Shown: piece after piece, positions 1 through 12,348 of the stretch
Position numbering within the stretch: the first letter of the stretch is position 1
Layout of the letters: each line of letters starts with the position of its first letter
DNA from: a virus
Taxonomy: Duplodnaviria > Heunggongvirae > Uroviricota > Caudoviricetes
Length of the DNA: 21,603 nucleotides
Virus record (IMG/VR): IMGVR_UViG_2778261535_000006
Coordinates: 1-21,603 of that record
Strand: one strand, 5' to 3'
The notes under the pieces: model-generated
What the model saw: only the letters and a program-made list of their open reading frames with translations
Databases searched by the model: none
What the model was told of the DNA's origin: nothing
Program-made: the position numbers and the translations under genes

Positions 1-1511
1 ACATACTGATAGCCAGCAATTTTTTCCTGTAAGGATTTAATCTTACTTTTCTGCTCGTCAATTAACCTGTTCTGCTCCTCCAGAGCCTGCCGCGTCTTTT
101 CTTCATTATCTGCCGCTTCAGGAAGTGACATTGCAGACGTTTTCTGGCGAATTTCGTCGATTGTTGCGGCATACTGACGAGCTGATTCTCTGGCCTGCTC
201 CTGGTTCTGATACATTGTGTACCAGGCCGCCGCCCCCAGCATGACAAGTCCAGGCACACCACCAACCAGCCCCAGAGCACCACTTAACAACCGACTACTA
301 ACTGACGTAACGTTATTCAGCGTTGCCTGTGCCGCTGTTCTGGCAGCAATATTACGGGTAAGTGAAGCCTGTGCGGTTGCCAGTTTCGCTTCTGCTGCAG
401 CCTGTTTTTCTGTACCACGGGCAGCCACAACCGCCTGCTGCGCACGATACAATGCCGCCCGCGCTCTGGCTGTAGCTATCTGTGTCCCTCTGAGCTGTGC
501 CTCAGCAAGAGCCACTTCGTTTCTGGCAGCAGTGATTAACCCGGCAGTTGCAGAGCCCGCAGAGGACGCCATATTGCCAAAATATCGGGCTACACCAATT
601 GCAACCAGAGCTCCCGCCGCCGTGGCAACCGTATCAATATTATTCGCAACACCATTCATTATTCCGGTAAGCGTTTTCGTTGCACCGCTGGCATCATTCG
701 CACCACCAACCCAGGCCATAAAGGCGTTTTCAACTTTGGTTGCAGAGGATGATACGGTATCAGGCATGGCTGCATATTCATCCCGCAGCGTACCAAGCTG
801 GCTAATCAGTGCAGGAACAACCTTATCGGCGGTCAGCTTTCCATCATCCGCCATTGCCTTCAGATCTTTACGGGCAACCCCCATTCCTGCAGCCAGAGCA
901 CGAATAACACGATCACCGCTTTCATTTACTGAATTAAACTCTTCACCGCGCAGAACCCCTTGCGCCAGTGCCTGGCTGAACTGAGTGATCACCGAGCTGG
1001 CTTCCGCAGAACTGGCTCCGGACAATTTCAATCCTGTAGAAATGGCCTCGGTAACTTTCAGTACTTCCTCAGACCTGTAACCATATTCCCGCATAGAAGA
1101 AGCCGAACGTGCAAAAAGACTGGCGTTATCAGCAAAAGCAGTACCCGTTCTCTGGCTGATCGCCATCAATTCGCGCTGTGATGCCTGGAAATCATCGCTG
1201 GACTGCGTGGCCTGCTTCAGACGGGCATTTACTGAACTCCATTCATCCGCAAGAGATATAAGATGTCCAGTGGCAAAAGCACCGGCAAATGCGCCAGCCA
1301 TATTCAGTGCCGAAGACTTCGCCGTATTTATCTGCTCGGTCACTTCTGCCAGTGCTCGCCGCATATCACGGGATGCAGCTGCAGACTGTCGACCTCCGTT
1401 CTGCATGGTACGGTAGTACTCCTGTCCCATACGTGAAGCTCGCGCAATTTCTGACTGGAATGACTGCGAATTTGCCGAGATTTTTATAATCAGTTCGCGT
1501 AGTGACGCCAT
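1..1511 (-). CDS. Tail tape measure protein, N-terminal ~500 codons (gene continues past the window start)
   Basis: Minus-strand frame opens with ATG at 1511..1509 (MASLRELIIKISANSQSFQ...) preceded by GGAG 8 nt upstream, and runs without a stop to position 1. Ala/Gln-rich with a Gly-rich hydrophobic segment (GALGLVGGVPGLVMLGAAAW), directly downstream of the G/GT chaperone pair. Not in the ORF track because it is truncated by the window edge. Confidence 0.7.
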   Translation of the reverse strand, partial: MASLRELIIKISANSQSFQSEIARASRMGQEYYRTMQNGGRQSAAASRDMRRALAEVTEQINTAKSSALNMAGAFAGAFATGHLISLADEWSSVNARLKQATQSSDDFQASQRELMAISQRTGTAFADNASLFARSASSMREYGYRSEEVLKVTEAISTGLKLSGASSAEASSVITQFSQALAQGVLRGEEFNSVNESGDRVIRALAAGMGVARKDLKAMADDGKLTADKVVPALISQLGTLRDEYAAMPDTVSSSATKVENAFMAWVGGANDASGATKTLTGIMNGVANNIDTVATAAGALVAIGVARYFGNMASSAGSATAGLITAARNEVALAEAQLRGTQIATARARAALYRAQQAVVAARGTEKQAAAEAKLATAQASLTRNIAARTAAQATLNNVTSVSSRLLSGALGLVGGVPGLVMLGAAAWYTMYQNQEQARESARQYAATIDEIRQKTSAMSLPEAADNEEKTRQALEEQNRLIDEQKSKIKSLQEKIAGYQY

Positions 1512-1525
1512 TCTCGTTCTCCAGG

Positions 1526-1556
1526 CAAAAAAAAACCGCCGAAGCGGTTTTTGCTT
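1526..1556 (-). terminator. Intrinsic terminator after the moron gene, before the tape measure gene
   Basis: Stem AACCGC / GCGGTT with loop CGAA (1534..1549), flanked by an A-run (1526..1535) and a T-run (1548..1557); on the minus strand the hairpin is followed by nine U. Confidence 0.6.
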
Positions 1557-1898
1557 TTAAAGAAGCCCAGCCTTACGCCTTGCTTCTTCAAGATATTCAT
1601 CATCCGTTTTTTGCGAAACGGTACTATCAGGGTTATGTGTTAAATCACTACCGCAATGCTTACACTTAATGGCTTCTTCTTTGATCAACTCCGCACAGTA
1701 AGGGCATTTTTTCATGCCATTGCTCACCATTTGTTGCTCATGCGTTTTTTCATCTTTTTGGATTACAAGTGAATGAACCAGGGCAACGATAAAGAGTAAG
1801 GCTCCGTATATCCACCATCCCCAAAATGAACGCCCTTTACTTTGCGCGATAATAGCCGGAATTAACCCCAAGACTAGCGCAATAAGAATAACTTCCAT
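1557..1898 (-). CDS. Small membrane protein with C-terminal zinc-ribbon (CPYC...CKHC); moron-like accessory gene
   Basis: ATG at 1898 with AAGGAG 6 nt upstream; two N-terminal hydrophobic helices (VILIALVLGLIPAIIA, WIYGALLFIVALVHSLVI), then Cys-x2-Cys...Cys-x2-Cys. Inserted between the GT chaperone and tape measure genes and followed by its own terminator. Confidence 0.6.
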   Translation of the reverse strand: MEVILIALVLGLIPAIIAQSKGRSFWGWWIYGALLFIVALVHSLVIQKDEKTHEQQMVSNGMKKCPYCAELIKEEAIKCKHCGSDLTHNPDSTVSQKTDDEYLEEARRKAGLL

Positions 1899-1956
1899 CA
1901 ATATCTCCTTATTTACTTAATAAAAATCGGAATCATAATCCAGTAAAGTAAGAAGA

Positions 1957-2639
1957 TCATTGTGTCGCTGCAAATAATGCATTTTCAAACGCAGTGAACG
2001 GATCTTTAATATTATTTGCAGGAACGACCTCCCACTGAAGAATCGCTTCATTCAGTGGAACTTTGACACCCTGCGCCCCGTAAACTGCAGAAACTATCTG
2101 GGCAGCCCGGATATCAGCCCGCTCGTCACCCAGCGGGCTGATCCTGTCAAATTCTGCCCACATCATGATTTCCGATGCAGACATTTCCCGGCGTAACTCT
2201 GACAATGTGCGCCCCATCCTGAGCGCCAGCATCATCAGAAAACGAATACCCGGAAGTGCTACTTTTTTTTAATAACTTCAGCATCAGTGATCAGTTCCAG
2301 TGACTGACGAAGCAGTCGTGCATGTACCGGACCATATACTGTAAGTACCTGCTCCCGATCATCCGCTGAAAACACGGGTTGCATCCCGGTATCACACAGA
2401 ACATCGATGAACAGTTCAACATCCGCTTCAAGATTTCGGCGGGCACGCTCCGCAACTGATAACGGTGTATCATCATCTCCGGTTTTAACGATCTCCTGCC
2501 AACGTAACCAGGCTTCTGCAGAGGGTTCCCGTAATACAACCGTTGTACCTTCCCACTCAGGAACATCAACTGTTTTGTGGCGAAAACCAGACATCGTCGC
2601 CAGTGCCAGATTGCGGATATTTTTAGACATAGATTTCAT
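1957..2639 (-). CDS. Tail assembly chaperone G-T fusion product made by -1 programmed frameshift
   Basis: Heptamer A AAA AAG at minus 2268..2262, directly before the G stop codon (2261..2259). The -1 frame continues open (KKVALPGIRFLMMLALRMGR...) to the stop at 1957, the same frame as track ORF 1957..2235. Confidence 0.6.
2259..2639 (-). CDS. Tail assembly chaperone (lambda gpG-like)
   Basis: 126-aa ORF immediately downstream of the major tail gene, AAGGAGG RBS before ATG 2639, ends ...EVIKKK* on a slippery A-AAA-AAG run; position and size match G-type chaperones. Confidence 0.7.
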   Translation of the reverse strand: MKSMSKNIRNLALATMSGFRHKTVDVPEWEGTTVVLREPSAEAWLRWQEIVKTGDDDTPLSVAERARRNLEADVELFIDVLCDTGMQPVFSADDREQVLTVYGPVHARLLRQSLELITDAEVIKKK

Positions 2640-2644
2640 CCTCC

Positions 2645-3349
2645 TTAACTGACAGTTACGGTGCAGGAAGTGGAGGTCACCTTATTAACCGGGCTTGCTG
2701 AATCAGAAACCTCACAGGTATACGCACCGGCATCTCCGGATGTCACGGAGGCCTTGTTGAAAGTTGCCGATGTCTGCCCGGAAACTGGAGAGCTGCCTTT
2801 CTTCCAGACATATGAATAAGGAGGCACACCACCTGATGCCTCAACAGACATATTCAGCGTTTCACTGGCAGAAACCTGTAGTGTACTTTTCAAATCAGAG
2901 AGGAGTTTCAAAGGTTCAGTGGTCAGAGAGGGCTTTCCTTTCAGGCGCAGGGAAAATGTGGCAGCAACAACACCGTTGGTTCCCACAGACCAGGTATGCT
3001 GGCGAACTTCTGCCATAAAGGTAAATCCATTTCCTGACGGGAAAATAACTTTGAAACCGTATGTGGTGTCGTTGTCATAAGCACTACGCAACGCGTTCTG
3101 GGCAGCGTTGAGATAAAAGTTTCCTGACATGGAAATCTCTGAAGCAGCCCCAAGACCGTTGATATTCTCCTGCTCGGTAGAACACAGCGTAGTGACATCA
3201 ATATCCTGTTTCTGCCCGGCGGTAAACTGAACCTCTTTAATCGTACAGCTCAGTTCAAGAAAACTGGCAGAACTCAGCGTTTCTGCCGTTACCGGTGCAG
3301 ACGAGATCATGACTTTGGTCTGCTGAGAACGTTCAAAATTAGAGGACAT
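2645..3349 (-). CDS. Major tail protein with C-terminal Ig-like (Big_2-type) domain
   Basis: Start taken at ATG 3349 (MSSNFERS...) with GGAG 7 nt upstream rather than the track start at 3400. C-terminal ~80 aa Ser/Thr-rich with the Ig-like pattern PPYSYVWKKG...GAYTCEVSD...CTVTV. Sits between tail completion genes and the G/GT pair. Confidence 0.7.
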   Translation of the reverse strand: MSSNFERSQQTKVMISSAPVTAETLSSASFLELSCTIKEVQFTAGQKQDIDVTTLCSTEQENINGLGAASEISMSGNFYLNAAQNALRSAYDNDTTYGFKVIFPSGNGFTFMAEVRQHTWSVGTNGVVAATFSLRLKGKPSLTTEPLKLLSDLKSTLQVSASETLNMSVEASGGVPPYSYVWKKGSSPVSGQTSATFNKASVTSGDAGAYTCEVSDSASPVNKVTSTSCTVTVS

Positions 3350-3361
3350 ACTCGTCTCCTG

Positions 3362-3387
3362 AAAATAAAAAACCCGCCAGCGGCGGG
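3362..3387 (-). terminator. Terminator-like hairpin plus U-run immediately upstream of the major tail gene RBS
   Basis: Minus strand: CCCGCC-GCT-GGCGGG (3373..3387) followed by TTTTTTATTTT, then CAGGAG and ATG 3349. Confidence 0.45.
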
Positions 3388-3408
3388 TGGGTAAAATCAT
3401 TAACGACC

Positions 3409-3753
3409 TCAGGCAATTACCTGAAATTCAAGCGTAGCTCTGCTCAGACGGGAATCAGGATCATAACCCTGAGTTTTAGAAATAACGGATGGTGCCAGTT
3501 CCCTTACCGCATCAAGCGCCTGCTCACGGATATCATCTGCGTCATCAGGAGCCGTTGCCCAGATATCAATCTGCACTGTGATTCTGGATTCAGCCTGACC
3601 ATCAAGCACATCAGACGCGATGTCAGACACCACTGAAAACACCAGCCATGGTGGAAATACCGCAGGCTTTCCCTCCGTCAGCGGGACCACATAAGGATAA
3701 ACCTGCCCTCCGGCCAGTTTGGACAGAAGAGCATACAGCGTGGCTTCTCTCAT
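3409..3753 (-). CDS. Tail component, probable tail terminator / tail completion protein
   Basis: 114-aa ORF between the HK97 gp10-like gene and the major tail gene; call is by position in the head-tail joining block only. Confidence 0.45.
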   Translation of the reverse strand: MREATLYALLSKLAGGQVYPYVVPLTEGKPAVFPPWLVFSVVSDIASDVLDGQAESRITVQIDIWATAPDDADDIREQALDAVRELAPSVISKTQGYDPDSRLSRATLEFQVIA

Positions 3754-4220
3754 TTACTCAGCACCCCATCAATAGCCTGATTCATATGCTTCATGGCAAC
3801 CTGTGCTGCCAGCTCCTCTGTCATATCAAAGGCCGGGCGAATGAACGGATGGGCAGGCATATTGATAGTCCCCAGCTCCACGAAACGCCAGTAAAACGCG
3901 TTTCGCGGATCGCTGGCTTTCATGCTGTTATCACTGTTTCCGGTTCGCAGATTCCGCCCACGAATGTGGACACCAGAGATAATTTCACCACGACGCCGTG
4001 AACGCTGAGTCAGAATAACCACGTTTTTCTTCAGTTTTCCGGTTCGCTCTGGCGCATGGTCAATAACCGCCTCCCGGATAACCTCTGCTCCGGCACGGGA
4101 GGCATCGCGAAGCACCTTATTACTCTCTGCTCTGCTGAGAAGTTCCAGATCTCTTGCAATATCCGCCAGGCCAGAAAAATCCAGACTAAAATCCGTCACA
4201 TTCCACCTCTCTGGCTGCAA
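3750..4220 (-). CDS. Head-tail joining protein (HK97 gp10-like family)
   Basis: 156-aa ORF overlapping its neighbours by 4 and 25 nt; size and position fit this family. Confidence 0.5.
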   Translation of the reverse strand: MQPERWNVTDFSLDFSGLADIARDLELLSRAESNKVLRDASRAGAEVIREAVIDHAPERTGKLKKNVVILTQRSRRRGEIISGVHIRGRNLRTGNSDNSMKASDPRNAFYWRFVELGTINMPAHPFIRPAFDMTEELAAQVAMKHMNQAIDGVLSK

Positions 4221-4534
4221 AGTATTTCAAGCCTGGAGGATCGTGCGTCCGGGATCGGCGGCCCGTCGATATTCAGAATGGCTCCCTTGAATGCCCCTGT
4301 CAGCACTTTCAGACGTGAGGCGGCCGTCACATCGCGCCGAAATCGCATCCAGACTCTTACTGTTGTCTGCGCGGTTTCCGCACCGCCCGATATACGTTCC
4401 CGCCCACTGATCCCCTTAACCTCTGCCCATACCGTAGCCCCCTCTTTCAGGGTTTCCTCCGGGTGACCGGAAGGGGTACGGGAGGTCGTAATATTCAGAA
4501 TAACCACGCGATCACGTAATCTTCCTGCCTGCAT
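4196..4534 (-). CDS. Head closure / head-tail adaptor protein
   Basis: 112-aa ORF between the gp6-like connector and the gp10-like gene; positional call. Confidence 0.5.
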   Translation of the reverse strand: MQAGRLRDRVVILNITTSRTPSGHPEETLKEGATVWAEVKGISGRERISGGAETAQTTVRVWMRFRRDVTAASRLKVLTGAFKGAILNIDGPPIPDARSSRLEILCSQRGGM

Positions 4535-4543
4535 GAAATCCTC

Positions 4544-4849
4544 CTATGTTCCGGGATGAAACCGATACATTCGGAGTCCGGTATAGAAAAAATCAGGTAC
4601 AGCATCCTGCATTTCCCTGTTCTCGTACCAGTAGCCAACCAGTTGCATAAGACGCAGCTTTATCAGCGGTGTTATTACAAGCCCGGTCGTATCCTGATCA
4701 GGAACAGTTTCATCGTGAAGTGTCCGGTTTAAAAACTTTTCAGCCTCTTCTCTGGCTGCTGCCAGATACATCATAAGAAGTGCATTCTCCTGTTCATTGT
4801 CATCATCAATCCGGCACTGAACACGAAGCTCTTCCAGAGTAGGCATCAT
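4544..4849 (-). CDS. gp6-like head-tail connector protein
   Basis: N-terminus MMPTLEELRVQCRIDDDNEQENALLMMYLAAAREEAE matches the characteristic start of gp6-type connectors (LEE..K.HLRID...E..LI...AAAR.Y.E). Confidence 0.6.
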   Translation of the reverse strand: MMPTLEELRVQCRIDDDNEQENALLMMYLAAAREEAEKFLNRTLHDETVPDQDTTGLVITPLIKLRLMQLVGYWYENREMQDAVPDFFYTGLRMYRFHPGT

Positions 4850-4860
4850 TTGGGCTACCT

Positions 4861-5112
4861 CTAAGAATGCTGTTTTTTAGCCTTATCAGATACCCGTGCA
4901 ACAGGTGTTCTCTTATCAGAAACAATCCCTGCTGCAGTGGCAATTTCACGTACCCGTTCGGGTAATTCTTTATCTTCATACTCACCAGCACGAATGATCT
5001 CAACGCGCATACCGTCCGGTGACCATTTCAGATCTTGTTTCAGGATCATGATTCTTTCACCTGTCAGAACAGGGGCGCAATTCAGCGCCCCTGAGTGATT
5101 ACGCCGCTGCAA
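4861..5112 (-). CDS. Hypothetical small protein downstream of the capsid remnant (start uncertain; an internal ATG near 5049 is possible)
   Basis: ORF only, weak RBS; kept because it fills the gap between the capsid remnant and the connector gene. Confidence 0.3.
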   Translation of the reverse strand: MQRRNHSGALNCAPVLTGERIMILKQDLKWSPDGMRVEIIRAGEYEDKELPERVREIATAAGIVSDKRTPVARVSDKAKKQHS

Positions 5113-5710
5113 TCTTCAGCAGTTTGATGGCCTGCGAATCGACCAGCATGCCGCCGGTGCGCTTGGTGGTATAAAAACCGACAAACGGTTTATTGGTGTA
5201 CGGGTCGCGCAGAATGCGGGTGCCGATACGGTCAACGATGGTGTAACCCCGTTTGAAGTTACCAAATGCAATAGCTTTCGCATCCGCAGCGATATCCGGC
5301 ATCTGCTCGTTTTCAGCGATACCGTAACCCGCCAGAGAGGACGGTTGCCCCAGTTCCAGCCCCGGACGCCACAGATAATTACCCTCGGTGTCTTTCAGCA
5401 GACGGATGGCAAACAGGCTGTTGTTGTTCATCATGAACTTCGCACCAGTGCGGTGTGCCTTACGCAGCGTGTAAATCAGTTTGATAACGGCGTCTGCGGT
5501 CACCGTCGTCGCTTCGCCGGATACAATATGCTGAAGTTTGCCGAACGCACGAACATTATCGGTTTCATCGGTGGATTCATACGCCAGGAACCCTTTCGGC
5601 TTCTTGGTACCATCGCCGGTGGTAAAGGCAATTTCTTCCTGTTCGGCAAATTCGGTTGCCAGCTCGCTGTTGATCCAGGCTTCCACGTTGAAAAAGGCAT
5701 CATCCAGCAT
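5099..5710 (-). pseudogene. Major capsid protein (HK97 fold), C-terminal ~200 codons only
   Basis: Begins mid-protein at the HK97-family motif E.EE.AF..GDG..KP.GFL ([21 protein letters not shown]) and ends ...FVGFYTTKRTGGMLVDSQAIKLLKIAAA. Upstream in this frame is terminase DNA read out of frame, so the N-terminal half of the capsid protein is absent. Confidence 0.6.
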
Positions 5711-7416
5711 TTTCTGGGTGGCCTGCGGTCTTCTTTCTCGTACAGCATGGCTCTGCCAACCGCCATAATCAGCGCAACTGCACCATCGATTTTGTTTTCC
5801 GCCTGCTCTTTGACGGGCTTCACCACATCATCGTTACCCGGAATGGTTTTGCCGACCACGTTGCCGATACACCAGGTCATGATGGGATTGCCATCATGAT
5901 GAAAGCGCCCCGATTCAATTGCCGCTTCCAGCTCTTTCATCGGGTCGGACATGTTGGTGTAGTTCTGAATGATAGTGATGGGGTTCAGGTCTTCATCAGC
6001 AAGGTCATGTGACAACCCGGTCGCCCCGAAGGGGTCGATGGGTGACTCACTGACCGGGCTGATTTTGTTCGCCGCTTTGGCCTCCTCGAGGATGTAGCGA
6101 TAATCCACCTCCGCACCATCGGTAACGGTCAGAACGCCCATTTCCACCCATTTCTGAAAGCGTTCGGCTGTCCGTCGATCTTCATTTTTCTCGACGCTGT
6201 ACACCGTGTCATACGGTACCCAGAAACGCGGGGCCACACTGTAGTAATGCGTTTTACCGTCAATCTCGCGGGTATAAAGTCGCGCCATGCTGTTCATATC
6301 CAGCTTACGCGCCAGGTCAAAGGCCAGAATGCACGGCTGCCCCTCGAACTGCTCAAGGGTCAGTGATTTATCCTCGCAGCTCTGCCAGCTCACCAGGTTG
6401 AAATACGCCGAACGCGCCGACACCCAGATATTGAGGTGTTTTGTTTTAAAGACGTTTGCCAGACGGGCGTTATTTTTCGCACGCTGCTGCTGACTTAACA
6501 AAAATTCGCGATAAACCGACACGCCAATATTCGGGTTAGCTTTTTCCAGCACCTGCGGGTCGGTCCAGTCATCGCCTTCGTCAACGGTATAGATGATCCC
6601 GAACAGTTCATCGTTGGGTACCGACCCGTTGAGCATCTCGATAACTTCCCGTCGCTTGTCGTAGCACGGCCCCTCAATGTTGTACCCGGCAGTAGTAATG
6701 GCCCACATCAGTGGCTGACGTCGCGCCCCCATCCCGGTAAGCATCGTGGTGTAAAGCGCATCGGTGGCGTGCTCGTGATATTCATCCACCACCGCACAGT
6801 GGGGTGATGAACCATCACCGGGGTTACCGATCAGCGGTTCAAACCGCGCGCCATCCTCCGGACGATTCATGTTTGAGGCGTTAACCTCAATCCCGAACGC
6901 TTCCGTCAGCATGGGTGTGCGTTTACACATCAGTCTTGCCGGACGAAAGACTTCCCATGCCTGTTTCTCCGTCGTGGCACCGGAATACACTTCCGCGCCG
7001 AACTCGTTATCACAGGCAAAACAATACAGGGCGACACCGGCAGAGATTGCTGATTTGCCGTTCTTACGGGGGATTTCGGTATACACCTCCCGGAAGCGGC
7101 GCAGCCGGGAGCCTTTATTGACCCAGCCAAACGCGCAGCAGATCACAAAGAGCTGCCACGGCTCCAGCGTGATGGGCATCCTCTTGAATGCCCACTCACC
7201 CTTGGTGTGCGGCAACAGCTGAATAAATTTGGCGGCCCGTTCAGCCAGGTCCTTGTCGAAGCGGTAACGAAACGACTTACTTTTTTCCGCCATCAGGTCA
7301 TCAAGATGGCGCTGGCAGGCCTGAATCACAAACTGGCAGGCCACAATCTTTCCGCGCACAACATCACGGGCATACTGATTGGCAGCATTTACGTTGGGGT
7401 AAGATTTCCGGCTCAT
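5500..7416 (-). CDS. Terminase large subunit; 3' end is abnormal and reads out of frame ~70 codons into the capsid remnant
   Basis: 638-aa ORF, ATGA overlap with the small terminase stop. Terminase-like through ...[22 protein letters not shown], then low-complexity Pro/Arg/Trp-rich text ([19 protein letters not shown]...) that is capsid DNA in the wrong frame. Confidence 0.8.
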
Positions 7417-7907
7417 GATTCGATAATTTTCAGAAACGGGTTAGTGGCTTTCTTCTGCCCCGCCAGGCCAATCAGACGCTGGCGGCTGCTGGGGTCGAGT
7501 CCGAGCATTGCCCCCGTACTGCTCATCTCGGACTCCTGTTCTTTTTTGGCGGTCAGCTCCGGATTTTTGACCATGCCGCCCATTGCACCGGTGATGGTGT
7601 TGCCCTGTCTGGCAATATTTTTCACAGCACGTCGCCAGAACTCATAGGCTACGCACCACCGCTCAAGCACTGCGAGGTCAGTCACGCACAGCAGGCCCTG
7701 ACCGCAGAGTTCTTTGGTTGTCAGTTGCCACATGATCGTGGCGAGAGGGAGCTCTTCTTCAGCGAACCACTCCGGTGGCTCAACACCTTTGATGGGCGTA
7801 AAAACGGGTTCATCTTTGTTCAGGGCTCGCTTGCCGGGGTTTCCGGCCAGCGCCTTGCGCGCCGTTGGCTTGGGGCGACGCCCGGAACGCCCCGCCGTTC
7901 CAGCCAT
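7413..7907 (-). CDS. Terminase small subunit (P27-like family)
   Basis: Start taken at ATG 7907 ([18 protein letters not shown]...) with AGGAG 9 nt upstream; stop overlaps the large terminase start; downstream of HNH. Confidence 0.65.
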
Positions 7908-7957
7908 ATGCGGCACTCCTGGTTAAATTTCATTTTTCGCGGGTATATAAAAACGAT

Positions 7958-8006
7958 GGGGCGGGCAGTCCTGAAGGCGTCAGGTCACAGAGATTTGACC
8001 CGCCCC
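7958..8006. repeat. GC-rich nested palindrome between HNH and small terminase genes; candidate cos site or terminator
   Basis: GGGGCGGG (7958..7965) and CCCGCCCC (7999..8006) are perfect inverted repeats enclosing the inner palindrome CCTGA-aggcg-TCAGG (7970..7984). On the minus strand it is followed by a U-rich tract. Confidence 0.35.
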
Positions 8007-8032
8007 TCCCCTCTGGCAGTGGGAACTGGTTC

Positions 8033-8383
8033 TTACTTCAGCCGTTCACGAGCCGTTTTCGCCTTATGACACGGCCAGCACAGGCTCTGCAGATTGCTGT
8101 CTGAATCTGTGCCGCCATGCGCTTTAGGAATGATGTGGTCAACGGTTTTCGCCTCACGCACCACACCAGCACGCAGACATAACTGACATAAACCTTTGTC
8201 ACGCTTCAGGACGCGCACGCGGATACCATCCCACTTCGAACCATAACCGCGCTGATGACGGGATTGTCCTGGCTTGTATTGCTTCCAGCCTTCACTTTTG
8301 TGGCTTTCGCAATAGCCTGACGGGTCAGTTGTGGTATGGCGGCAGCCGCGAACACGGCAGGCTTTTGGGGTTCGTGGTGGCAT
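8033..8383 (-). CDS. HNH endonuclease (terminase-associated)
   Basis: Start taken at ATG 8383 (MPPRTPKACRVRGC...) with GGAG 7 nt upstream. Cys-rich with HNH motif ...VDHIIPKAHGGTDSDSNLQSLCWPCH; located just upstream of the terminase genes. Confidence 0.8.
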   Translation of the reverse strand: MPPRTPKACRVRGCRHTTTDPSGYCESHKSEGWKQYKPGQSRHQRGYGSKWDGIRVRVLKRDKGLCQLCLRAGVVREAKTVDHIIPKAHGGTDSDSNLQSLCWPCHKAKTARERLK

Positions 8384-8392
8384 GCTGGCTCC

Positions 8393-8418
8393 AATAAAAA
8401 GCCCCGCGACGCGAGGCT
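8393..8418 (-). terminator. Intrinsic terminator-like hairpin after the small membrane protein gene
   Basis: Minus strand: GCCUCGC-guc-GCGGGGC stem followed by UUUUUAUU, immediately before the HNH RBS. Confidence 0.4.
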
Positions 8419-8448
8419 TAGACAGAAAAAACACCGGATAAGATCTGG

Positions 8449-8652
8449 TCATTCTTCCTTTTTAATAATGACTTCTCGAGGGCGCAATTGTTGGATAGCA
8501 CGACAAATACAATATGGAATAACTGCCCATGCTACTCCCATTGCTGCACCTGCAGCCTGTTGTGGAGCACTCTGAGCACCGAAAACCCCGAGGATTCCTT
8601 CAATAAATCCAATAGCACTACACAAAAGACTGATGACCCAGAGAATTTTCAT
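8449..8652 (-). CDS. Small hydrophobic membrane protein, function unknown
   Basis: ATG 8652 with AGGAG ~9 nt upstream; 67 aa with two hydrophobic segments (ILWVISLLCSAIGFIEGILGVFGA, AAMGVAWAVIPYCICRAI). Confidence 0.5.
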   Translation of the reverse strand: MKILWVISLLCSAIGFIEGILGVFGAQSAPQQAAGAAMGVAWAVIPYCICRAIQQLRPREVIIKKEE

Positions 8653-10712: not shown

Positions 10713-11402
10713 TTAATCCAGTTTTGCAATACTTTGCTGTGAAAATGTGGTCTTTTGTTTTGAACGTGTTTTCGTTAAAAGCAATAAAGCTTGGCTATCA
10801 AGCTGTAGAAAAATGTGCTTCATTGCAACCCAGCGTTCAGTAAATGTCTCAGACCAGTTTTTTGATGTCACTCCCACCAGTAATGCCAGCTCCTGGTATT
10901 CATAGGTCTTACGCCCTGCCAGCTCGTTCTTCACATCCTGTGCCGCCAACCAGATCAACTTCTTTAAGCGCTCCAGTGTCTTACTGGCAATTTTTCTTGT
11001 ACCTAACAGCGCCTTAAACTCGCTCCATGCCCACTGCGTTATGGCAACCTGATGCTCCCAGCGAATATTTTCACTGTAACTCCACAGCAACCACGCTTTC
11101 TGATGTTCATCGAGAGACAAAATCGCACGCCGCCACGAAGAGGTTGAAAACTCGACCGAACTGACCAGGGTGACAGATGAACCTTTTGCGTAGGACTGTT
11201 TACCGGAAATCGGCGGATTATCCAGCGTAATCATCTTGCCAGTTACCACATCCAGAATGCGCGGCTTCTTTCGTTTGTATGTACCAGTATCAAATTGTGC
11301 ATGCTCCAGCCAGGCTTCAAGCTGGCCTTTCATTGCTCCGCTCAAATCAGCGGTAGCCACCATGAGTTGCTCGCGGACATACTGTAAATATTGGGTATTC
11401 AT
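10713..11402 (-). CDS. Putative late-gene antiterminator (Q-like, not lambda Q-type)
   Basis: 229-aa ORF between rusA and the lysis cassette, followed by a ~310-bp non-coding region carrying terminator hairpins, as in the lambda Q-pR'-tR'-S arrangement. Call is positional; the sequence does not resemble lambda Q. Confidence 0.45.
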   Translation of the reverse strand: MNTQYLQYVREQLMVATADLSGAMKGQLEAWLEHAQFDTGTYKRKKPRILDVVTGKMITLDNPPISGKQSYAKGSSVTLVSSVEFSTSSWRRAILSLDEHQKAWLLWSYSENIRWEHQVAITQWAWSEFKALLGTRKIASKTLERLKKLIWLAAQDVKNELAGRKTYEYQELALLVGVTSKNWSETFTERWVAMKHIFLQLDSQALLLLTKTRSKQKTTFSQQSIAKLD

Positions 11403-11535: not shown

Positions 11536-11898
11536 TCATTCATCTCCCAGTTCAGTGATGGTCAGCTCCAGCTTTCCACCTTTGGTAACGGGCATCTTCA
11601 CAACGCGATAATCAACGACCTGAGCATCATCCAGCCAAAAACCTGCCTTAGTTAGTGCGTCAAAAGCGGCTTTTTGCAGATTATCCAGGTCACGGCGACG
11701 GCGATCCGGCATGTGGCACTCAATACGGATTTTCACAGGCATAGCCAGGCCGATATCCAGCATTGAGCCTTTAATGATTCGGGCGACGTTATCGCGGTAT
11801 GCCTGCCCTTCTGCGCTGATGTGCGTGCGCCCTCGATTATGGCGGTAGTAGCGGTTATTGCTCGGCGGCCAGGGTAGTGTGATGTGGTAAGTATTCAC
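11536..11898 (-). CDS. rusA: Holliday junction resolvase RusA
   Basis: [38 protein letters not shown]...[28 protein letters not shown] matches E. coli DLP12 RusA as I recall it; GTG start overlapping the upstream stop. Confidence 0.9.
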
Positions 11899-12185
11899 GC
11901 CTTAATTACCCCCTCTTTCAGCCAGATAACCTGCGTTCTCGCCATACCTTCCAGCGCGCATTCTTTTGCATATCCAGCGTCAACAAAATGCGTGCGACGG
12001 TCGATCTCGTCGTGACAGTCAGAACATGCAATGGTGGCAATAAGGTCTGGCGGTTTAATACCGGTGCCGCACAATCCAGCCAGCCGGATATGTGCCAGTA
12101 CAGACGTTTCAGGATTGCCATTACATACGCCAGGGATTCTTACCTGGCATTCCCGACCACGCGCTGCTTTTCTCAAATCAGCCAT
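11895..12185 (-). CDS. YbcO-like Cys-rich putative nuclease (DUF1364-type)
   Basis: Start taken at ATG 12185 ([32 protein letters not shown]...) with AGGAGG RBS; resembles DLP12 YbcO; Cys/His-rich. Confidence 0.75.
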
Positions 12186-12348
12186 GATTCCTCCTTGCTG
12201 CCAGTCGCAACCATTTTTTATCAACCAGGCTGGCGGTATATCCGAGCAGTGTTGGTATTTCGGATGGCTTCAGCTCAGGTTTACGCTTACGACGATTTGG
12301 TACTCTGTAGATGTGTCCGTTCATGACACGAATAAGCGGTGTAGCCAT
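12178..12348 (-). CDS. ninE: NinE-family protein (56 aa); absent from the ORF track
   Basis: Minus-strand frame ATG 12348 to stop at 12180..12178: [56 protein letters not shown]. Basic, with the W-L-R-L motif of NinE proteins; GGAGG RBS; overlaps the ybcO-like start. Confidence 0.7.
   Translation of the reverse strand: MATPLIRVMNGHIYRVPNRRKRKPELKPSEIPTLLGYTASLVDKKWLRLAARRNHG

Follow-up and report, generated by a model that had tools for sequence, protein, structure and literature searches.

HK97, phiP27 and the serotype-converting phages of Shigella flexneri are among the closest described systems. Bacteriophage HK97 carries 10-nt 3′ overhangs at its genome ends (PMC9410871; PMC11331095). 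Cleavage by the HK97 large terminase TerL (gp2) is stimulated by the HNH protein gp74 (PMC11331095; PMC9410871). The HK97 small terminase TerS (gp1) has a minimal binding site at positions +15 to +29, CTAACCCGATTTTTT, which is read via one C:G pair and the shape of the adjacent A-tract (PMC11331095). The cos sites of the S. flexneri phages SfI, SfV, SfII and SfIV, with the cohesive end TGCCCGCCCC, are located between the HNH and TerS genes (PMC3636060; Jakhetia et al. 2013, PMC3851460). In SfI, the termini of the virion DNA were sequenced directly by run-off, and a 10-nt gap relative to the prophage, 5′-TGCCCGCCCC-3′, was reported (Sun et al. 2013, PMC3636060). Edwardsiella phage EPP-1 was also sequenced from virions, and its genome was corrected using PhageTerm (PMC11043334). 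For phiP27, a Stx2e phage and the name-giver of the P27 small-terminase family, GenBank record AJ298298 contains a misc_feature 'cos-site' on CGCCCGCCCC, and the end position of this phage is taken from that feature only. The SfI/SfV/SfIV/phiP27 group combines an HK97-type TerL with an HNH accessory nuclease and a P27-family TerS.

The cos site of phage lambda (cosQ-cosN-cosB; PMC4669245) is a further comparable system. It shares the tripartite logic of a conserved upstream element, a nick site and a downstream TerS site, as well as a position at the start of the late morphogenesis operon. It differs in its 12-nt 5′ overhang, its gpNu1/gpA terminase and the lack of an HNH partner.

The window analysed here is a 21,603-nt stretch of viral DNA. 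Its positions ∼7923–8011 very probably constitute the cos packaging site of a lambdoid prophage of the SfI/SfV/SfIV/phiP27 group, as judged by homology to relatives with located genome ends. A cos site of this type is already known, since it has been mapped in near-identical phages.

Gene setting of the intergenic element

The element occupies the interval between two packaging genes on the minus strand. The relevant features are as follows.

10713–11402, minus strand: Q-like antiterminator gene
8033–8383, minus strand: HNH endonuclease gene (116 aa; Pfam HNH PF01844, E=8e-17)
7908–8032, minus strand: HNH-TerS intergenic region (∼125 nt)
7413–7907, minus strand: small terminase gene TerS, P27 family (Pfam Terminase_4 PF05119, E=2e-21)
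5728–7416, minus strand: large terminase gene TerL, HK97 type (Pfam TerL_ATPase and TerL_nuclease)

The first-pass annotation had placed a candidate cos site between an HNH gene and a small terminase gene, and the Pfam matches confirm both flanks, each on the minus strand. The HNH protein is near-identical to the SfI HNH protein and is homologous to HK97 gp74 (45% identity over 42 aa, E=9e-11); it is predicted from these similarities to be a gp74-type accessory nuclease for cos cleavage. The TerS protein shares 100% identity with SfIV TerS and 98.8% identity with SfI TerS. TerL is homologous to HK97 gp2 (26% identity, E=2e-29), and the Pfam families matched by the HNH protein and TerL are those that match HK97 gp74 and gp2. 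The minus-strand gene order is Q antiterminator, holin, endolysin, Rz, HNH, cos, TerS and TerL. This order places the cos element in a lambdoid late operon, where the morphogenesis genes of the prophage begin. A pattern scan found no promoter-like site between HNH and TerS, and expression of TerS and TerL therefore depends on read-through of the Q-controlled late transcript.

The window contains a second HNH endonuclease gene (phrog_131; 11895–12224, minus strand), which lies in the nin region between NinB and RusA. Its position is unrelated to that of the packaging HNH gene.

Anatomy of the cos region

The cos region is numbered from the nick on the phage-sense (minus) strand, such that position +n corresponds to window position 7958-n and position -n to window position 7957+n. 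It is composed of conserved blocks separated by a variable spacer.

-54 to -42 (8011–7999, minus strand): G-box GGGGAGGGGCGGG, at which the conserved block begins
-41 to -34 (7998–7991, minus strand): TCAAATCT motif, whose sequence and register are kept in HK97
-33 to -14 (7990–7971, minus strand): variable spacer
7970–7984: inner palindrome CCTGA-aggcg-TCAGG, falling within the variable spacer
-13 to -11 (7970–7968, minus strand): GAC trinucleotide, immediately 5′ of the cohesive end
-10 to -1 (7967–7958): cohesive end (cosN core), TGCCCGCCCC on the minus strand and GGGGCGGGCA on the plus strand
+5 to +9 (7953–7949, minus strand): T-run TTTTT, which is T7 in most relatives
+14 to +26 (7944–7932, minus strand): candidate TerS site ACCCGCGAAAAAT, nearly invariant in relatives

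The TerS start codon (ATG) is located at +51 (window position 7907), 50 nt downstream of the nick. By analogy with the relatives, nicks would fall between positions 7958 and 7957 on the minus strand and between positions 7967 and 7968 on the plus strand, generating a 10-nt 3′ overhang. The G-box and the TCAAATCT motif (7991–8011) together form a candidate cosQ-like element. Downstream of the cut, ACCCGCGAAAAAT is a candidate small-terminase binding site of the cosB kind. It is proposed as the TerS site because its ACCCGCG-AAAAA-T composition resembles the HK97 site in kind and distance. Because the TerS proteins of the two phages lack detectable similarity (the window TerS and HK97 gp1 show no BLASTP similarity, and gp1 matches no Pfam family), the transfer of this site from HK97 is one of DNA-motif resemblance only.

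Genome ends of related phages

The located genome ends of relatives carry the identification. A megablast search of window positions 7400–8460 against phage records retrieved SfIV, SfV, SfI and SfII at 97–99% identity, and the point at which the SfV, SfIV and SfI GenBank records are opened lies within the element. Over the same positions, E. coli matches reach at most 96.4%. The SfI gap decamer is identical to the reverse complement of window positions 7958–7967 at 10 of 10 positions, and the SfI record ends with the same decamer (...GGACTGCCCGCCCC). The annotated phiP27 cos-site aligns with the element base for base. The EPP-1 record ends with ...TACTGCCCGCCTC (terminal TGCCCGCCTC) and restarts with CCCCAATTTTTATGACCGCGAAAAATG, in the same register as the SfI cut. 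The HK97 record ends with ...GACCGCCGCCAAA, and its final 10 nucleotides, CGCCGCCAAA, align to the same column. The first-pass annotation had proposed a comparison with the mapped cos sites of relatives and had named ends lying elsewhere as evidence against its reading. The ends of SfI, phiP27, EPP-1 and HK97 all fall inside the element, and they do so in one register. The cos reading of the HNH-TerS interval is thereby supported through homology and not through symmetry.

The window copy is nearly identical to the copies in its closest relatives. Between positions -75 and +48, 4 of 123 bases separate the window from SfI (-20, -15, +1 and +10), and 4 of 123 separate it from SfIV (-34, -20, -15 and +10). 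The G-box, the GAC trinucleotide, the 10-nt cohesive end and the ACCCGCGAAAAAT box are free of these differences; the one from SfIV at -34 falls on the final base of TCAAATCT, a motif that SfI matches in full. The bases that set the window apart from the S. flexneri phages are C (-20), A (-15) and A (+10), and the prophage of the window differs from them in carrying siphovirus-type tail genes and a head-gene deletion. The phiP27 decamer CGCCCGCCCC is 9/10 identical to that of the window. phiP27 further shares a G-box (GGGGAGGGGCGGGTCAAATC), the 21-nt spacing described below and ACCCGCGAAAT downstream, but differs in the first base of the overhang (C versus T), in the spacer sequence and in the TerS 5′ region.

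Several database records are opened at other points. The SfV (U82619) and SfIV (KC814930) records are linearised 17 nt upstream of the SfI-mapped cut and start with TCCGGACTGCCCGCCCC, equivalent to window position 7974, and the SfII record starts at the HNH stop codon. Thus, not every record end in this group marks a genuine terminus. The record of Pseudomonas phage VW-6S (MF975720) has an identical sequence of ∼64 nt, including the G-box, at both ends; this repeat is probably an assembly overlap of a circularly permuted contig and not a real terminal repeat.

Conservation of the element across relatives

Conservation was analysed using an alignment of 15 phages, including HK97, and an exact-pattern scan of IMG/VR that yielded at least 120 loci with 54 distinct cores. 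In all 15 aligned phages, the distance from TCAAATC to GAC is 21 nt and the GAC trinucleotide is present; GAC is also found in the Burkholderia and Pseudomonas relatives. The 54 IMG/VR cores vary freely between the HNH stop codon and position -55, and the conserved sequence starts with the G-box. It is interrupted by the variable spacer and picks up again at about -19, extending through the TerS ribosome-binding site. A G-run occurs at the same place in HK97, Burkholderia phage vB_E174 and Pseudomonas phage VW-6S. In the latter two phages, whose TerS proteins are ∼50% identical to that of the window, the G-rich box, GAC with a C-rich decamer, and ACNCCCGCGAAATT are kept.

The comparison extends to HK97 despite greater divergence. 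HK97 shares the order HNH-cos-TerS-TerL, homologous TerL and HNH proteins, a G-run and TCAAATCT in identical register from the end, GAC followed by a C-rich decamer, and CCCG with an A/T tract downstream at a similar distance. In a right-anchored ungapped comparison, the HK97 and window cos regions are identical at 33 of 63 positions. Their local alignment score is 27, compared with 16.4±2.25 in shuffles, of which 7 of 2000 reach 27. HK97 differs in its overhang (CGCCGCCAAA), in having no 8-bp inverted repeat and in the position of the HNH stop codon, which lies 319 nt upstream of the end in HK97 and 75 nt upstream in the window. From SfI/P27-type phages to HK97, the G-box and TCAAATCT are fixed at -54 to -34, although the TerS proteins are unrelated in sequence and the overhangs differ.

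The IMG/VR scan also returned cores in unusual settings. Six contigs (L078, L065, L091, L127, L147 and L050) contain a P27/SfI-type cos core without flanking HNH and TerS genes. In L078, the core is located at 6272–6337 on the minus strand, and the gene order is a D5-like primase/helicase, cos, a ClpP-protease/capsid fusion (637 aa), a Lambda_tail_I-like protein and DUF1441. L078 looks like a capsid-forming satellite (PICI-like) with this type of cos. Another contig, L045, contains two complete cos cores (3498–3563 and 6369–6434) separated by 2.9 kb. A TerS start follows each of them, and the second core is the TCAGG variant. The double cos could reflect tandem or recombinant prophages, or a misassembly.

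State of the prophage

The prophage has lost part of its morphogenesis region. Compared with phage vB_EcoM-689R6, the window contains a 2,698-bp deletion with its junction at position 5728 (affected span 4973–7416). The deletion eliminates the portal and protease genes, a gpW-like gene and the first ∼190 residues of the major capsid protein. It also takes the last ∼14–15 TerL codons, and the open reading frame continues out of frame to position 5500. The junction fuses the shortened TerL to the C-terminal part of the major capsid gene. With these losses, the prophage is defective for head assembly. The cos site could therefore be used only in trans, by a helper phage of the same specificity, and it may go entirely unused in this genome. 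Window positions 1–5728, which encode the tail and head-tail connector, are 86–89% identical to the siphovirus-type phages phi467 and Evi (89% for phi467). The morphogenesis region is therefore mosaic, in that a siphovirus-type tail module is joined to an SfV-type myovirus terminase-cos module.

Such a prophage raises the question of whether the element is an inert remnant, that is, a genuine cos homologue that has ceased to be a substrate and is decaying with the defective prophage. The loss of the TerL C-terminus and of the gpW-like, portal, protease and N-terminal capsid sequences is consistent with decay, as are the three substitutions relative to SfI and SfIV in the spacer and T-run (-20, -15 and +10). 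The deletion junction is spanned by none of 5,426 complete E. coli genomes. However, the conserved blocks and their spacing are intact, the substitutions lie at positions that vary among functional phages, and the HNH and TerS open reading frames are undamaged. Moreover, a cos site needs only a helper terminase acting in trans. Decay to an inert remnant is thus unlikely.

The inverted repeat and its significance

The first-pass annotation had drawn attention to this interval through an 8-bp perfect inverted repeat enclosing CCTGA-aggcg-TCAGG, and every part of this structure was found. On the plus strand, the arms GGGGCGGG (7958–7965) and CCCGCCCC (7999–8006) are 100% complementary and 33 nt apart; CCTGA (7970–7974), aggcg (7975–7979) and TCAGG (7980–7984) lie inside them. 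The upstream arm in the phage sense is formed by the last 8 nt of the G-box, and the cohesive end consists of the downstream arm plus 2 nt.

The repeat is statistically unexceptional. Perfect inverted repeats whose arms measure 8 bp or more and lie no further than 60 nt apart occur in 7.4% of 5000 dinucleotide-preserving shuffles of the 122-nt intergenic region. The whole 21.6-kb window contains 56 pairs of this kind, and 6 of these have 7 or more G/C. The folding z-scores of the intergenic element are modest (-1.65 for RNA and -2.32 for DNA), and 12 of 200 shuffles fold equally well as RNA. The 8-bp repeat alone is within chance expectation, and the inner 5-bp repeat is trivial. The inner palindrome is perfect through a single base, A at -15 (window position 7972). 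This position is C in SfI, SfV, SfIV, SfII and ST64B and is C, A, T or G among the 54 IMG/VR variants. The inner palindrome is a one-base polymorphism private to a few variants.

The outer repeat could nevertheless be functional in itself, with a cruciform, a hairpin or the binding of a symmetric dimer being needed for cos recognition. All relatives, HK97 among them, have an upstream G-rich box and a C-rich overhang, and the repeat arms are ∼41 bp apart centre to centre, roughly four helical turns. In the IMG/VR set, ...CCCC ends are mostly found together with the GGGGCGGG box and ...CCTC ends with the GGGGGAGG box. Across the 54 variants, the best inverted repeat has a mean length of 6.56, compared with 6.10±0.10 upon permutation of partners, and 0 of 500 permutations reach it. 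However, this box/end association is weak and clade-confounded, corresponding to two clades and roughly one evolutionary event. The perfect 8-bp repeat is present in only 25 of the 54 distinct variants, and the others have 4–7 bp. The second clade pairs in a shifted register, and complementarity is lost in the GGTGG variants.

The pattern among named phages likewise argues against selection for pairing. Phages of the SfI/P27 core group retain the outer repeat, but it has degraded without compensation in several relatives. The arm is broken in Salmonella phage 118970_sal3 (CCCGCCTC), in Klebsiella phages (CCGCCGCCTC) and in HK97 (CGCCGCCAAA). IMG/VR variants with the overhangs CGCCACCTTG, CGCCGCCTTG or CGCCTGCTCC retain the G-box, such that HK97, the Klebsiella phages, sal3 and the CGCCACCTTG/CGCCGCCTTG variants all have a G-box without matching complementarity. 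An RNAalifold analysis of 12 relatives gave a covariation term of -0.14, with the pairs broken in sal3, the Klebsiella phages and HK97. The cut sites are also asymmetric about the repeat centre. They bracket one repeat arm and not the centre of the palindrome, in contrast to lambda cosN, whose internal two-fold symmetry is centred on the cut. Given these features and a repeat frequency within the expectation from shuffles, a function of the inverted repeat as such is highly doubtful. The symmetry argument of the first-pass annotation is not supported, and the repeat is concluded to be a by-product of two independently conserved G/C-rich elements.

Weakest among the alternatives is an intrinsic, rho-independent terminator of the HNH transcript, in which the GGGGCGGG/CCCGCCCC hairpin would cause termination at the U-run. 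In its favour, RNAfold pairs the two arms around the inner hairpin, a UUUUU tract begins 4 nt beyond the stem and the T-run is conserved in the P27 group. This reading is nevertheless scarcely credible given a 33-nt loop in the stem, AUCG separating the U-run from the stem, an RNA fold matched by 12 of 200 shuffles, stem pairing that is not maintained in relatives, and terminase genes directly downstream that have to be expressed from the same Q-dependent transcript. The U-rich tract to which the first-pass annotation had pointed does exist on the minus strand, as a T5 run (7953–7949) after the 4-nt spacer ATCG, but the terminator that it had offered as an alternative fails on loop length, U-run spacing and conservation alike. 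A better account of the T-run is that it belongs to the conserved left end of the genome. A terminator scan (loop of 3–8 nt, T-run within 2 nt) returned no match at the element and one upstream of HNH (8419–8399). This hairpin, AAGCCTCGCGTCGCGGGGCTT followed by TTTATT (8399–8419, minus strand), lies directly upstream of the HNH ribosome-binding site and start codon and fits the terminator criteria much better than the cos palindrome does.

A lambda-type cos was also considered and rejected: the terminase consists of Terminase_4 and TerL_ATPase/TerL_nuclease proteins, and the SfI end is a 10-nt gap.

Proposed packaging mechanism

The cos packaging site between HNH and TerS can be placed in a mechanism assembled from its relatives. 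The end position is provided by SfI, the phiP27 annotation, EPP-1 and HK97, and the 3′ polarity, TerS site and HNH stimulation by HK97; the window copy itself is linked to them by homology and register, and its cleavage, polarity, TerS site and G-box role are predicted from them. TerS would bind the concatemer just downstream of the cut, at the putative site ACCCGCGAAAAAT (7944–7932), and recruit TerL. TerL, stimulated by the HNH protein, would then nick both sides of TGCCCGCCCC (7967–7958), 10 nt apart, to leave 10-nt 3′ overhangs. The SfI report is silent on polarity. A 3′ overhang in the SfI group is suggested by HK97 and by the SfI gap, because run-off reads from the two termini that leave a gap between them imply that the 5′ ends are recessed.

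Packaging would proceed toward the terminase and head genes, that is, toward lower window coordinates in the minus-strand direction, as does late transcription. It would stop at the next cos, and the G-box and TCAAATCT (8011–7991) would be the last conserved DNA to enter the head. These two blocks may act as a termination element like lambda cosQ. In this scheme, the 8-bp repeat is a coincidence of sequence, in that the C-rich cohesive end can pair with part of the G-rich box.

A more specific proposal, advanced tentatively, is that the G-box and TCAAATCT might be an undescribed subsite of HK97-type cos sites, serving as a cosQ-like signal or as a docking site for TerL or HNH. The partial complementarity between the G-box and the overhang could then reflect recognition of one G-rich strand motif that occurs twice, in opposite orientations and about four helical turns apart.

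Implications

The palindromy that first marked this interval is a poor criterion for cos sites of this kind, and synteny and homology are good ones. The G-box and TCAAATCT provide a testable candidate for the missing termination subsite of HK97, a proposal that builds on the lambda analogy (PMC4669245) and may go beyond the accessible literature. The occurrence of the cos core on satellite-like contigs hints at hijacking of P27-type terminases. For the prophage itself, the cos assignment, at the strength given above, fixes the origin and direction of packaging.
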